IMG/VR virus record: IMGVR_UViG_2740892421_000003
Length of the DNA: 5,743 nucleotides
Source of the DNA: a virus
Taxonomy: Duplodnaviria; Heunggongvirae; Uroviricota; Caudoviricetes
Reading direction: 5' to 3' (one strand)
Of the stretch, positions 1 to 5,743 are shown in pieces. Below the pieces are notes generated by a model. The model was not told where the DNA came from, ran no database searches, and saw only the letters and a program-made list of their open reading frames with translations. How positions within the stretch are numbered: the first letter of the stretch is position 1; each line of letters opens with the position of its first letter. The position numbers and the translations under genes are program-made.

Positions 1-2
1 CG

Positions 3-3000
3 TCATCGGCCTCATCGGCGTCTGCTTCAAAAGATGAGGCGACCAGACAAGCGTCAGCAGCGAAGGGCAGCGCCACGACGGCATCCACGAAGGCAACAGA
101 GGCTGCTGGCAGTGCGACGGCGGCATCTCAGAGCAAAACTACTGCTGAATCCGCTGCGACCCGTGCGGAAGCTGCTGCTGATCGTGCTGAAGAGATTGCC
201 GGTGCAGTTGCGATGGAAGACGCAAGCCTTACAACTAAAGGTGTTGTGAAACTTAGCAGTGCTGTTGATAGCACCAGTGAATCGCTGGCCGCAACGCCAA
301 AAGCAGTTAAAGCAGCCAATGACAATGCGAATAGCAGGGTGCCATCTAACCGAAAAGTTAACGGAAAAGCACTGACTGCGGATATAACATTAACGCCGAA
401 AGATATTGGTACTTTAAATTCAGTAACGATGTCTTTCTCTGGCGGGGCTGGGTGGTTCAAACTGGCTACGGTTACCATGCCACAAGCGAGTTCCATCGTT
501 TACATCGCATTGATTGGTGGCGCTGGTTACAACGTCGGTTCCCNNNNNNNNNNCACATTAACGCCGAAAGATATTGGTACTTTAAATTCAGTAACGATGT
601 CTTTCTCTGGCGGGGCAGGGTGGTTCAAACTGGCTACGGTTACCATGCCACAAGCGAGTTCCATCGTTTACATCGCATTGATTGGTGGCGCTGGTTACAA
701 CGTCGGTTCCCCACATCAGGCAGGCATTTCAGAACTGGTTCTACGAGCAGGCAATGGAAACCCCAAAGGAATTACCGGGGCTTTGTGGAAGCGTACAGCC
801 GTCGGATTAACGAATTTCGCCTGGATCAACACATCCGGCGATACATATGATATTTACGTTGAGATTGGCAATTATGCGACGAGTGTAAATATCCATTGGG
901 ATTGTACTGCAAATGCGTCAGTTTCTGTTTATACCTCGCCAACATATTCAGCGAGTAAGCCTTCCAGCGTTACCTATGGTGTTGTTTATACGATGTATAG
1001 CTCACATCAGAAACCTACACCATCAGATATTGGAGCACTGCCAACAACCGGAGGAACAGTTTCAGGTCCGTTGTCTGTTACAGGTGGATTAACTGGTTCA
1101 TTGAATGGTAATGCAAGTACAGCCACGAAATTGCAGACGGCAAGATCTATCGGTGGAGTTGTTTTCGACGGTTCTGCAAATATTAACCTTCCAGGTGTAA
1201 ACACTACGGGTAATCAGAACACCACTGGTAATGCTGCAACTGCTACAAAACTTCAGACTGCAAGAAAAATATCCGGTGTTCCATTTGATGGTTCTACTGA
1301 TATCACTTTAACCGCCGCGCATGTGGCTGCTTTTGCCAGAAGGGCAACGGATACATATGCCGATGCGGATGGTGGCGTTCCCTGGAATGCCGAATCAGGC
1401 GCTTACAATGTCACCCGCTCTGGCGACAGCTATATTCTGGTTAACTTCTATACCGGAGTCGGAAGTTGCCGGACCCTGCAGATGAAGGCGCATTACAGAA
1501 ATGGTGGTCTGTTCTACCGTTCTTCAAGAGACGGTTATGGTTTTGAGGATGACTGGGCAGAAGTTTATACCTCGAAAAATCTTCCACCAGAAAGCTACCC
1601 AGTCGGCGCACCAATCCCGTGGCCATCAGATACCGTTCCGTCTGGCTATGCCCTGATGCAGGGGCAGACTTTTGACAAATCTGCATACCCGAAACTTGCA
1701 GTGGCTTATCCGTCAGGCGTTATTCCTGATATGCGTGGCTGGACGATTAAGGGCAAGCCCGCCAGTGGTCGTGCCGTATTGTCTCAGGAACAGGACGGCA
1801 TTAAATCGCACACCCACAGCGCCAGCGCATCCAGTACGGATTTGGGGACGAAAACCACATCATCGTTTGATTACGGCACTAAATCCACGAATAACACTGG
1901 TGCACATACCCATAGTGTTAGCGGTACGGCTGCTTCAGCCGGTGCACATACCCATTCGATGACATTTGTTTCAGGTGGTTCCAGTGGTGCTCCGGGAANN
2001 NNNNNNNNAGGTGCTTTGTGGAAGCGTACAGCTGTCGGATTAGCGAATTTCGCCTGGATCAACACATCCGGCGATACATATGATATTTACGTTGAAATTG
2101 GCAATTATGCGACGAGTGTAAATATCCATTGGGATTGTACTGCAAATGCGTCAGTTTCTATTTATACATCGCCAACATATTCAGCGAGTAAGCCTTCCAG
2201 CGTTACCTATGGTGTTGTTTATACGATGTATAGCACACATCAGAAACCGACGCCGTTAGATATTGGAGCACTGCCAACAACCGGAGGAACAGTTTCAGGT
2301 CCGTTGTCTGTTACTGGTGGTATCACCGGAACATTAAATGGTAATGCAAGTACAGCAACGAAATTGCAGACGGCAAGATCTATCGGTGGAGTTGGTTTCG
2401 ACGGTTCTGCAAATATCAACCTTCCAGGTGTAAATACTACGGGTAATCAGAACACCACTGGTAATGCCGCAACTGCTACAAAACTACAGACGGCAAGAAC
2501 TATCGGCGGCGTGAGCTTTGATGGTACTGCAAATATTAATTTGCCAGGTGTTAATACGACTGGTAATCAGAATACAACAGGTAATGCGGCTACTGCTACG
2601 AAGTTGCAGACTGCGCGTACTATTAATGGGGTGTCGTTTGACGGTTCTAAAAACATTGAGCTAACTCCAAGGTCTATAGGCACGATCAACTCAGCAACAA
2701 TATCTTTTAGTGGTGGTGCCGGATGGTTCAAGCTGGCAACTGTAACCATGCCACAGGCCAGTTCCGTGGTTTACATAAGCCTGATTGGTGGTGCAGGGTA
2801 TAACGTTGGCTCCCCGCATCAAGCAGGCATCTCTGAGCTGGTTCTGCGTGCCGGAAATGGAAATCCAAAGGGTATTACTGGTGCATTATGGCGACGGACA
2901 TCGGTTGGATTTACTAATTTTGCATGGGTGAATACATCCGGTGATACCTATGATGTTTATGTTGAAATAGGTAATTACGCCACAGGTGTTAATATTCAGT

Positions 3001-5330
3001 GGGATTATACCAGTAACGCCAGCGTAACGATTCATACATCACCAACTTATACAGCGAATAAACCAACTGGTCTTACTGATGGAACGGTATATGTCATTTA
3101 CAGTTCGCACATTAAACCGACCGCCACGGATGTCGGCGCATTACCAATAACCGGAGGAAATCTCAACGGCGGTTTAACGGCTACTGGTGAGATCATTTCA
3201 AAATCGGCGAATGGTCTGCGCATTGCCTACGGAAGCTACGGATTCTTTATCCGAAACGATGGTTCAAACACATATTTCATGTTGACCAATTCGGGTAACA
3301 GCCTGGGAACCTATAATAGTTTAAGGCCGCTTATCATTAACAATGCCAATGGTGCTGTTACGATCGCTAATGGACTCAATGTTACTGGTGGCGTAAATGG
3401 TAGCTTGAATGGCAATGCTTCAACGGCTACGAAGTTGCAAACAGCGAGAAACATCAATGGTGTTAAGTTTGATGGTTCAGGCGATATCAATATTAATACA
3501 TTGGTATCTCGTGGCCGAGTTACGGCGTTAAGCGGCTCTACTCAAGGCACTGCTGGCATTCAAATGTATGAGGCGTACAACAATAGCTACCCGACCATGT
3601 ATGGCAACGTATTGCACATGAAAGGTGCGAGTGCTTCTGGTGAGGGCGAGATGCTTGTTGGCTGGAGCGGAACGGATGGTGCTCATGCACCGGTTTATGT
3701 TCGTTCACGCCGTGATACTTCGACAGCGAATTGGTCTGGTTGGGCGCAGGTCTATACCACTGCTCATAAACCCACAGCGAAAGATGTTGGGGCTGCACAG
3801 ACGTTTAGCGCGTCATACAGTACTGGGGCTGGCAACTGGACTACCGCTGAATTTATCGCATGGCTGAAGGAGCGTGGTGCTTTCGCCGTACCGTATTGGA
3901 TGATGAAAGGCTCTTGGTCATATGCCGACAATAAAATTATCACTGATACAGGTGTCGGCAATATTTGTCTTGCTGGTGCGGTTATCGAGGTTTTAGGTCA
4001 CGAAGGCGCAATGACCATCCGAGTTACTACGCCTACAACGACAACCGGAGGTGGTATTGCCAGTGCTCAGTTCACCTATATTAATCACGGTAGCGCGTAT
4101 GCCCCTGCCTGGCGCAGAGATTACAACACTGCTCTCAAACCCACTGCGGCTGATGTCGGTGCGTTACCGATTTCTGGCGGAACAATGACTGGTGTGCTGA
4201 CGCTGCAAAATGTGAGTCAGCCCCTCAAGACGCAAGGTGGAGGCATTCTGGCAAATGATGGAAATTTATACATTAATAAGTCGGGATTTGCAGGCTGGAT
4301 TGATGCGCTATTTATGAAAAACAGCGGCGGTACGATGTCCGGACAGCTTAAGATCCGCTCTACGGATGGGTTACGCATTTACGATGCGGCATACGGGATG
4401 ATTTTTCGCCGTTCCGAAAATAATTTTTACCTTATCCCGACAGCAAAAGACCAGGGAGAAAATGGTGATATAGGTTCGCTTCGTCCATTTTATGTAGATC
4501 TCACTAATGGCAGAGTAACAATGGGCAATGGTGCTGTTGTTAACGGTGGTCTTGGGCTGGGTGTGGTCAATGGTCTTGGCGGTAATTCCATTGTTCTGGG
4601 TGACAATGACACCGGCTTTAAACAGAACGGAGATGGCATTCTGGATGTTTACGCCAATAGCGCCCATGTTTTTAGGTTCGTTAATAGCACGCTGCAAAGC
4701 CTTAAGCCGTTGAGTGTAACGGGTGACATCACGTCAAGTGCGTGGGTTTACGCCAACCGTTTTTCCATCAACAGCGGCTCTGGCGCGTGGATAGATATGC
4801 GTAACCAGAACGTCATCTTCGGGAGGAACGCTGTAAGTACAAGCTCTGCACAAGCGTTGTTGAGACAAGACCACGCGGATCGCAAATTCTTCTTGGGTGG
4901 CTTGGGAAACAGTCAGTTTGGTTTTTACATGATCAACAACTCACGTACCGCAAACGGCACTGACGCTGCCGCTTATCTCCAGAACGACGGCACTTGGGTT
5001 TGCGCAGGCAACGGTAGTTTTAATGACGTTTACATCCGTTCCGACCGCCGTAGTAAGCGCAATATTCGCAAAATTGAGCGGGCGCTCGACAAGCTGGAGC
5101 AGATCGAAGGTGTTCTCTACGAGATTCAGGTCTGTGGCCGTTATGAGCAGTCTGGCGGCCTCATCGCTCAGGACGTCCAGAATGTTCAGCCTGAACTGGT
5201 AACGGTTGACCATAACGATCAGTCAGGAGAGCCTCGTCTGCGTCTTAACTACAACGGCGTTATCGGCATGTTGGTCGAGGCTGTCAAAGAGCTGCGCGAG
5301 GAAGTGCGCGAACTGAAGGCAAAAATGTAA
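3..5330 (+). CDS. Long (side) tail fibre protein, mosaic, with C-terminal intramolecular chaperone domain; 5'-partial (continues upstream of window); spans two N-run gaps
   Basis: Frame +3 has no stop codon from nt 3 to TAA at 5328-5330 (1775 sense codons in window). Translation upstream of the track's ATG at 213 reads [70 protein letters not shown], a typical fibre shaft, so 213 is an internal Met. Contains the Stf-type motif [25 protein letters not shown], 40-aa tail-fibre repeats, a tail-collar-like block, HTHS motifs, and an S-D-x-x-x-K C-terminal domain. Family call from memory, not a search. Confidence 0.9.
237..311 (+). other. Conserved side-tail-fibre motif ([25 protein letters not shown]), as recalled from lambda Stf and relatives
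   Basis: Direct translation of frame +3. The motif and preceding Ala/Ser/Thr-rich stretch resemble the central region of lambda Stf as I recall it (..[25 protein letters not shown]..). Confidence 0.7.
387..711 (+). repeat. Tandem direct repeat: 157-nt unit (387-543) repeated at 555-711, period 168 nt, copies separated by the 10-N run
   Basis: Both copies encode [52 protein letters not shown]. By manual alignment there is one mismatch (T449 vs A617, GCT vs GCA, synonymous). Confidence 0.85.
544..553. other. Run of 10 N (assembly gap or masked bases) inside the tail fibre ORF
   Basis: Literal nnnnnnnnnn in the sequence; flanked on both sides by the same 157-nt repeat unit. Confidence 0.99.
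778..1265 (+). repeat. Long direct repeat, copy A (~488 nt; partner at 2011-2498, in-frame offset 1233 nt)
   Basis: Manual alignment gives about 28 mismatches in about 488 positions (about 94% identity; needs computational confirmation). Encodes [49 protein letters not shown]...[17 protein letters not shown]...[12 protein letters not shown]. Confidence 0.85.
1101..1320 (+). repeat. Two tandem copies of the ~40-aa phage tail-fibre repeat (120-nt period)
   Basis: [43 protein letters not shown] followed by [27 protein letters not shown]. The GGT-AAT-GCx starts at 1107 and 1227 are exactly 120 nt apart. Confidence 0.8.
1599..1998 (+). other. Tail-collar-like domain followed by three His-x-His (HTHS) motifs; a lambda-Stf-type distal receptor-binding region found here in the middle of the ORF
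   Basis: [133 protein letters not shown]. Matches my recollection of the C-terminal region of lambda Stf and of tail-collar domains (..LPDMRGW..). The block ends exactly at the second N run. Confidence 0.75.
1999..2008. other. Run of 10 N (assembly gap or masked bases) inside the tail fibre ORF
   Basis: Literal N run. Left flank is the end of the HxH block; right flank starts in the middle of the repeated module (GALWKRT...). Confidence 0.99.
2011..2498 (+). repeat. Long direct repeat, copy B (partner of 778-1265)
   Basis: Same manual alignment as copy A. Protein differs at only about 7-8 residues (for example LTNF/LANF, SVSVY/SVSIY, TPSDIG/TPLDIG, GGVVFDG/GGVGFDG). Confidence 0.85.
2334..2680 (+). 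repeat. Three tandem copies of the ~40-aa tail-fibre repeat (120-nt period; units start near 2340, 2460, 2580)
   Basis: ..[40 protein letters not shown] / [40 protein letters not shown] / [27 protein letters not shown]. Nucleotide copies are diverged, mostly at synonymous positions. Confidence 0.85.
2664..3158 (+). repeat. Third, diverged copy of the ~230-aa fibre module (TPRSIG...[18 protein letters not shown]...[10 protein letters not shown]...[16 protein letters not shown]...[17 protein letters not shown])
   Basis: Collinear at protein level with 387-1058. Nucleotide sequence is clearly more diverged than the A/B pair (roughly three quarters identical by eye, not computed). Confidence 0.75.
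3213..4580 (+). other. Distal fibre region with two related units of about 60-70 aa (3213-3400 and 4368-4580; pattern GLRI..Y..G..FR....N.YF..T.....G...SLRP......NG.VT..NG) and small domains each ending in a KPT..D.GA junction
   Basis: [54 protein letters not shown] versus [55 protein letters not shown]. Protein-level similarity only; no nucleotide repeat. Confidence 0.5.
3405..3500 (+). repeat. Sixth, isolated copy of the 40-aa tail-fibre repeat
   Basis: [31 protein letters not shown] in frame +3. Confidence 0.75.
5040..5327 (+). other. C-terminal intramolecular chaperone / autoproteolytic domain (endosialidase-chaperone, peptidase S74-like); predicted cleavage after Ser encoded at 5040-5042, Lys at 5055-5057
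   Basis: Translation ..[102 protein letters not shown]. The S-D-x-x-x-K spacing and the GLIAQDV / LNYNGVIG / terminal helix signature match the self-cleaving C-terminal domains of phage K1F endosialidase and T5 pb1 as I recall them. Confidence 0.8.
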
Positions 5331-5336
5331 TCAAGG

Positions 5337-5366
5337 TGAATGGTGAGGGGCCACCCTCACCATTCA
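5337..5366 (+). terminator. Perfect hairpin (13-bp stem, 4-nt GCCA loop) 6 nt after the fibre stop codon; possible terminator or attenuator lacking a canonical U-tract
   Basis: TGAATGGTGAGGG-GCCA-CCCTCACCATTCA; all 13 positions pair (7 G:C). Downstream sequence is GGATATTCACATC, not a T run. Confidence 0.45.
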
Positions 5367-5382
5367 GGATATTCACATCAAA

Positions 5383-5388
5383 AAGGAG
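5383..5388 (+). promoter_or_regulatory. Shine-Dalgarno sequence (AAGGAG) for the downstream gene
   Basis: AAGGAG sits 7 nt upstream of GTG at 5396 (5 nt upstream of the out-of-frame ATG at 5394). Confidence 0.6.
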
Positions 5389-5395
5389 ATTAGAT

Positions 5396-5743
5396 GTGCC
5401 AATTGTCGGTGTTCCCGGTTGGATTGGGTCTTCGGCTGTCAGTGTGACAGGCCAGAGATGGATGAGTGCGGCTCGAACGGCGGTGCAACTGCCAGCGGCT
5501 GGTTCAATGTCTCAAATGGCCGGGCGATCTAAAGAAGTTCAGTACAGCATCGGTGCGAATCATAACTACAACAAAGACACACTGATCAACTATTTAAAAT
5601 CCCAGGGGGCGACGCCAGTCGTTGTTACCATTACAGGGGATCTGGTGTCGTCCAGTAGCGGCGTGCCATGTTTAGATTTCCCGAGTTCACTTACCAACTC
5701 TTATATCAGCCTTGTAATCAACGCAGGTGTGACTGTCTATGGA
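5396..5743 (+). CDS. Hypothetical phage protein, GTG start, 3'-partial (runs off window); function unknown
   Basis: Frame +2 is open from GTG 5396 to the window end (116 codons, no stop): (M)PIVGVPGWIGSSAVSVTGQRWMSAARTAVQLPAAGSMSQMAGRSKEVQYSIGANHNYNKDTLINYLKSQGATPVVVTITGDLVSSSSGVPCLDFPSSLTNSYISLVINAGVTVYG. The overlapping ATG at 5394 is in another frame and stops after 17 codons. Missing from the ORF track because it has no ATG start and no stop in window. Confidence 0.6.
   Translation, partial: MPIVGVPGWIGSSAVSVTGQRWMSAARTAVQLPAAGSMSQMAGRSKEVQYSIGANHNYNKDTLINYLKSQGATPVVVTITGDLVSSSSGVPCLDFPSSLTNSYISLVINAGVTVYG

Follow-up and report, generated by a model that had tools for sequence, protein, structure and literature searches.

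An apparent tandem duplication in a phage tail-fibre reading frame, very probably a scaffolding artefact made from two fibre genes

The stretch of DNA analysed here (the window, 5,743 nt, from the IMG/VR virus record IMGVR_UViG_2740892421_000003, Caudoviricetes) contains one ORF of 1705 aa, at 213–5330, whose sequence is of the phage tail fibre type and in which a 157-nt segment occurs twice in close succession. Taken at face value, this is a 1705-aa fibre with a fresh tandem duplication, and the question raised by the locus is whether a gene really carries the segment twice. An earlier note on this DNA had treated a recent duplication and an unmerged overlap as indistinguishable; its artefact alternative was right, but the two can be separated using public single-copy sequences. 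Judged from these sequence comparisons, the apparent duplication is very probably a scaffolding artefact, in which the versions of one segment from two fibre genes, here called Q and P, stand in series, with one copy per gene. The tandem appearance would thus come from the scaffold, on which the segment is written first in its Q version and then in its P version.

The window is a scaffold of three contigs (1–543, 554–1998, and 2009–5743) with two N runs between them, at 544–553 and 1999–2008. These runs are fixed-length placeholders rather than measured gaps, because both are exactly 10 nt. The reading frame is already open at the start of the window, in contig 1, and the 1705-aa ORF reads through both N runs. 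Two references are used below, the Escherichia coli STEC409 chromosome (L001) for gene Q and the IMG/VR contig UViG_2630968639_000001 (L019) for gene P; “collapsed” coordinates are those of a single-copy query made of window 1–543 and 712–1300 (1132 nt). The features of the window are as follows:

1–543, plus strand: contig 1, from the interior of a side-tail-fibre (Stf-like) gene of a lambdoid prophage, version Q
387–543, plus strand: copy 1 of the 157-nt unit, Q version, with T449 and with A386 just upstream; ends at the end of contig 1
544–553, no strand: first 10-N placeholder, a scaffold join
554–711, plus strand: copy 2, the first 158 nt of contig 2; P version (C554, A617)
618–775, plus strand: 158-nt core identical in Q and P (no differences between L001 and L019, collapsed 450–607)
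776–1998, plus strand: rest of contig 2, with the body of the Q-type Stf continuing into the GAHTHS repeats; breaks off mid-gene
1999–2008, no strand: second 10-N placeholder, where gene Q, cut in its middle, is joined to the interior of gene P
2009–5330, plus strand: contig 3, body and C-terminus of fibre gene P to the stop codon; 100% identity to UViG_2630968639_000001
2658–2814, plus strand: third, diverged copy of the unit (71% nucleotide identity), part of an old duplication of a larger module in gene P

Downstream of the fibre stop (5330), an ORF on the plus strand, in the codon frame of 5333, occupies ~5400–5743 and runs off the end of the window (...MSQMAGRSKEVQYSIGANHNYNKDTL...).

The repeat itself is present as first described, with two direct copies of 157 nt at 387–543 and 555–711 that are 99% identical (156/157), lie on either side of a 10-N run, and are spaced 168 nt from start to start. 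A match of this quality cannot arise by chance. The sole mismatch inside the copies is indeed synonymous, T449 against A617 (GCT and GCA, both Ala). The copies had been said to be separated by the N run only, and the run is there (544–553), but one real base, C554, also intervenes. Copy 1 ends (...GGTTCCC) at 543, the final base before the run, and copy 2 starts (ACATTAACG) at 555, one base after the run. C554 is aligned with A386, a second mismatch, so that contig 2 overlaps contig 1 by 158 nt with two mismatches. In contig 1, which stops at 543, the equivalent of the 618–775 core begins at 450.

The 168-nt in-frame period had been taken as compatible with a real duplication, a support that falls away once the period is broken down into its parts, namely 157 nt of repeat, one further base, and 10 placeholder Ns; 157 is not a multiple of 3, and the in-frame period is an accident. 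Both joins of the scaffold happen to keep the frame. For two arbitrary joins this would be mildly unexpected, with a probability of about 1 in 9; the frame is kept because of the fixed 10-N length, as a matter of arithmetic.

The first of the two genes is found intact, with one copy of the unit, in E. coli chromosomes. When the collapsed query was compared with 5,426 complete E. coli genomes, 541 of them matched it at a coverage of at least 80%, and three complete chromosomes were 100% identical over all 1132 nt. Contig 1 is 100% identical over 543 nt to the chromosomes of E. coli STEC409 and 2017.15.02CC (7001–7543 of L001 and L002). On L001, contig 1 maps to 7001–7543 and contig 2 to 7387–8830, as overlapping tiles of a single-copy gene, and window 712–1998 is identical to 7544–8830. 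Window 1–543 joined to 712–1998 (1830 nt; path Q) is an exact substring of the STEC409 chromosome by string test. The L001 gene runs on to 9069, is followed by a tail fibre assembly gene, and lies between gpJ/lom and that gene; it is annotated as a “prophage tail fiber N-terminal domain-containing protein”, with a product of 1075 aa in total. We assign gene Q as a predicted lambda-Stf-type side tail fibre of a chromosomal lambdoid prophage, because its L001 counterpart has the Pfam domains PF08400 (phage_tail_N) and Collar together with GAHTHS-type Phage_fiber repeats. Beyond the base that matches window 1998, L001 reads GTGGATCACC..., which is unrelated to the window from 2009 onward, so that contig 3 is no continuation of Q. 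Near the end of contig 2, at 1899–1955, GGTGCACATACCCAT occurs twice, 42 nt apart, and encodes GAHTHS motifs (Pfam Phage_fiber repeats, as in Stf/gp37-type fibres); contig 2 stops ~45 nt downstream of these repeats, and they may explain why the assembly stopped there.

The second gene is found in L019, which is free of Ns. Contig 3 (3735 nt) is 100% identical to this contig, and window 554–775 is identical to 432–653 of its reverse complement, C554 and A617 included. Window 554–775 joined to 2009–5743 (3957 nt; path P) is an exact substring of the L019 reverse complement by string test. In L019, one uninterrupted ORF leads from the shared N-terminal region through a single copy of the unit into all of contig 3 and to the same stop codon. 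The product of gene P has at least 1324 aa, and the region 2009–5330 encodes the Pfam domains Gp34_trimer, Phage_fiber_2, and, at the extreme C-terminus, Peptidase_S74 (PF13884; E = 3.6e-11, residues 1229–1283 of the 1324 translated). Gene P is thus a predicted fibre with a putative C-terminal intramolecular chaperone of the Peptidase_S74 kind. Its closest relatives in complete genomes are on 105–120-kb E. coli plasmids and in phage CMS-2020a, and one segment is 90.6% identical to Salmonella phage SSU5. The exact gene P was absent from the complete replicons searched, in which the best complete-genome match had 91% coverage and 95.7% identity. In one carrier of a related locus, the E. coli PEC178 plasmid pPEC178_2 (L045, 3281–7144), the annotation divides the P-like region into a truncated pseudogene and a distinct “tail fiber domain-containing protein”. 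This phage-plasmid is closed, and it follows that some carriers have a rearranged or decayed version of the locus.

Together, paths Q and P cover every non-N base of the window, and each reference contains the unit once. Because two single-copy paths account for every real base, the “duplication” can be taken, as far as sequence comparison goes, as the Q version and the P version in series, which makes the 1705-aa ORF chimeric, with parts of both genes. The decomposition of the window into two exact public sequences, the assignment of alleles to them, and the single copy in all relatives examined are direct observations.

The alleles of the two genes follow the contig boundaries closely. Over collapsed 270–607, Q (L001) and P (L019) differ at two sites only: at 386 Q has A and P has C, and at 449 Q has T and P has A. 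Both differences are synonymous. The two genes are identical over collapsed 450–607 (158 nt) and diverge again from 608. Copy 1 has the Q alleles (A386, T449) and copy 2 the P alleles (C554, A617). More broadly, contig 1 carries Q alleles throughout, including the Q allele at 9 of the 9 sites in 1–543 that discriminate Q from P, contig 2 begins with the P alleles of sites 386 and 449 (C554 and A617 of the window) and has Q alleles from 608, and contig 3 starts exactly at 608 with the P allele. The first bases of contigs 2 and 3 each discriminate P from Q (C554 in the one; A2009, against C776, in the other), as expected of branch points in an assembly graph. In addition, contig 1, the core, and contig 3 do not together form an exact substring of L019, which differs from contig 1 at nine sites.

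Contig 2 is itself a combination of the two genes. Among the fetched loci, C at 386 is paired with A at 449 only in L016 and L019, where the sequence that follows is of P type, and the combination seen in contig 2 (C386 and A449 followed by Q sequence) occurs in 0 of 61 loci. Because this haplotype is in none of these loci and the C and A pair is linked only to P, contig 2 is best read as a probable assembly path that crosses the 158-nt exact core from P into Q. Against 571 complete E. coli genomes, window 554–800 was never matched at 100%; the best match was 99.6% (over 555–800), and its single mismatch is presumably A617, as against L001. This best match had first suggested that A617 was a sequencing error, an idea that was dropped, as C386 and A449 are a real linked haplotype in L019.

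Copy number was assessed from exact-anchor scans and from the loci themselves, as BLAST joins non-colinear pieces and cannot separate one copy from two. Of 71 fetched loci, 61 have the unit at 90% identity or more, and each has exactly one copy. The only second copies in these loci are distant ones, 870–1900 nt away and 75–76% identical, which correspond to window 2658–2814. A copy-end-to-copy-start junction, sought with exact anchors (unit end, 0–30 nt, unit start), gave 0 matches in IMG/VR, in 185,579 species-representative genomes, and in JGI metagenome contigs, and was found in none of the 71 fetched loci either. The single-copy controls of the same scan returned 41, 1, and 24 contigs in IMG/VR, genomes, and metagenomes, respectively; both anchors were kept in the controls for genomes and metagenomes, and the IMG/VR control followed the unit end into its downstream sequence. 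With neither pattern was the source of the window itself recovered from IMG/VR, GTDB genomes, or metagenome contigs.

How three contigs could give such a scaffold can be outlined, and here we infer both the presence of the two genes in the sample and the mechanics of the assembler. The sample would have held two tail-fibre genes, Q of a chromosomal lambdoid prophage and P of the SSU5-like phage-plasmid kind, which differ at only two sites over ~220 nt (collapsed 386–607), including the 158-nt exact core. A short-read assembler may fail at such a repeat, with two ways in and two ways out, and three pieces would then be emitted. Contig 1 would be the left arm of Q running into the core, contig 2 a stub of P from exactly C386 with the core and the right arm of Q, and contig 3 the right arm of P from the first P-specific base; the scaffolder would have strung these together, with 10-N placeholders of fixed length in between. 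The last base of contig 1 lies 94 nt beyond the Q-specific T449, and the boundaries would fit de Bruijn nodes at k = 95 with k-1 bases trimmed from the later nodes. Single complete genomes with both Q-like and P-like genes do exist, strains PEC178 and CP53 among them. In PEC178, the Q-like stf belongs to a lambdoid prophage of the chromosome and shares 99.6% identity with the collapsed query, and the P-like fibre region is carried by a 106-kb plasmid. In the sample, P and Q may have resided together in one genome or may stem from a mixture of strains.

Real repeats do exist in these fibres. The third copy of the unit at 2658–2814 (71%) is a real and old intragenic repeat, part of a duplication within gene P of a ~210-aa module (387–1020 against 2658–3290, 66–71% nucleotide identity), and the distant second copy at 75–76% is also in the N-free relatives L003, L016, and L019. 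Unlike the 157-nt artefact, this module duplication is the real repeat architecture of the fibre. Two further repeats were observed. After the second join, 2010–2309 is a 96% repeat of 777–1076 (family D1) and belongs to gene P. Six copies of an 80-nt block, mostly 120 nt apart, lie in 1106–1305, 2339–2658, and 3410–3489 and encode a ~40-aa repeat (Pfam Phage_fiber_2); its presence in L019, a contig free of Ns, shows the repeat to be genuine.

Such internal repeats of tail-fibre genes, the 120-nt repeats and the diverged third copy among them, lend some plausibility to the idea that a single fibre gene very recently underwent a genuine in-frame tandem duplication of 168 nt (56 aa), the junction of which the assembler left unclosed; so do the close match of the two copies and the fact that the apparent period is a multiple of 3. 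However, that period hangs on the 10-N placeholder, the repeat proper being 157 nt, and C554 matches neither A386 nor A722, so that this base is out of step with a 168-nt period. The boundaries of the unit coincide with contig ends, and the two bases in which the copies differ are the very ones that set Q apart from P in this segment. Adjacent copies are in none of the relatives examined, and the junction is absent from the public data searched. In addition, the unit is the first 52 aa, or about the first quarter, of the ~210-aa module, and a fragment of a domain would have to be duplicated. Neither a period that is a multiple of 3 in real bases nor a copy-to-copy junction in the sequence of public contigs was found; what was found is a gap between the copies that abuts contig ends, a single copy in gap-free loci, and differences that are Q and P alleles. 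We regard a genuine duplication in this gene as extremely unlikely.

In a simpler artefact, two neighbouring contigs of a single locus would overlap without having been merged, and the differences between T449 and A617 and between A386 and C554 would be sequencing or contig-end errors. Contigs 1 and 2 do tile the single-copy L001 with a 157-nt overlap, and of the complete E. coli genomes none that otherwise agrees with contig 2 has A617. Yet both of the supposed errors are alleles of L019, whose downstream 3735 nt are 100% identical to contig 3, and two random errors that match a paralogue present in the sample would be very unlikely, as is this reading as a whole. The earlier proposal of an unmerged contig overlap was correct in the artefact and in one copy per gene, but the versions placed in series are those of two different fibre genes and not of one locus. 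For practical purposes, the outcome of a simple overlap and of a two-gene scaffold is the same: an artefact, with one copy per gene. There is also a very slight chance that the source genome had a real tandem duplication of 56 codons, or a fibre gene that is a natural recombinant of P and Q, arisen within a module exchanged between a lambdoid prophage and a phage-plasmid; if true, either would catch fibre-module shuffling in the act.

The two-gene scaffold that we favour matters mainly as a caution. What looks like one long fibre is actually two genes of unrelated length spliced by two placeholders, and gene calls, protein-family clustering, or any inference of repeats or of “evolution in progress” from the 1705-aa ORF would mislead. 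Mosaicism is a long-known property of tail-fibre genes, and a near-identical module common to a chromosomal lambdoid stf and a phage-plasmid fibre gene, from phages that are unrelated, is ordinary tail-fibre mosaicism.

Each of the two genes resembles a known system. In the case of lambda Stf, the L001 reference, identical to path Q, has the PF08400 N-terminus, the Collar, the Phage_fiber repeats, and the gene order gpJ, lom, stf, tfa; the window differs in that it has only an internal fragment, which lacks the N- and C-terminal ends of the gene and is fused to another gene. Gene P resembles the long fibre of SSU5-like phage-plasmids in the location of its relatives on 105–120-kb plasmids and in its Gp34_trimer, Phage_fiber_2, and Peptidase_S74 domains, and related plasmids (L045) have a “receptor-recognizing protein” gene immediately downstream of the fibre gene. 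It differs from such a fibre in being a mosaic, with 5' modules common to lambdoid stf genes.

The repeat as a whole has its parallel in genome assembly. When two copies on the same scaffold are separated by a gap, this is a recognised sign of false duplication (Ko et al. 2022, Genome Biol 23:205, PMC9516828), and the false “heterotype” duplications of that study share with the window two versions in series across a gap, version-specific variants, and a single copy in gap-free assemblies. Theirs are haplotypes of diploid vertebrates and extend over kilobases, whereas the versions in the window extend over 158 nt and come from two paralogous phage fibre genes, or from two strains, in a sample that was bacterial or viral. 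The repeat in the window is a textbook false duplication, the only twist being paralogous phage genes instead of diploid haplotypes.
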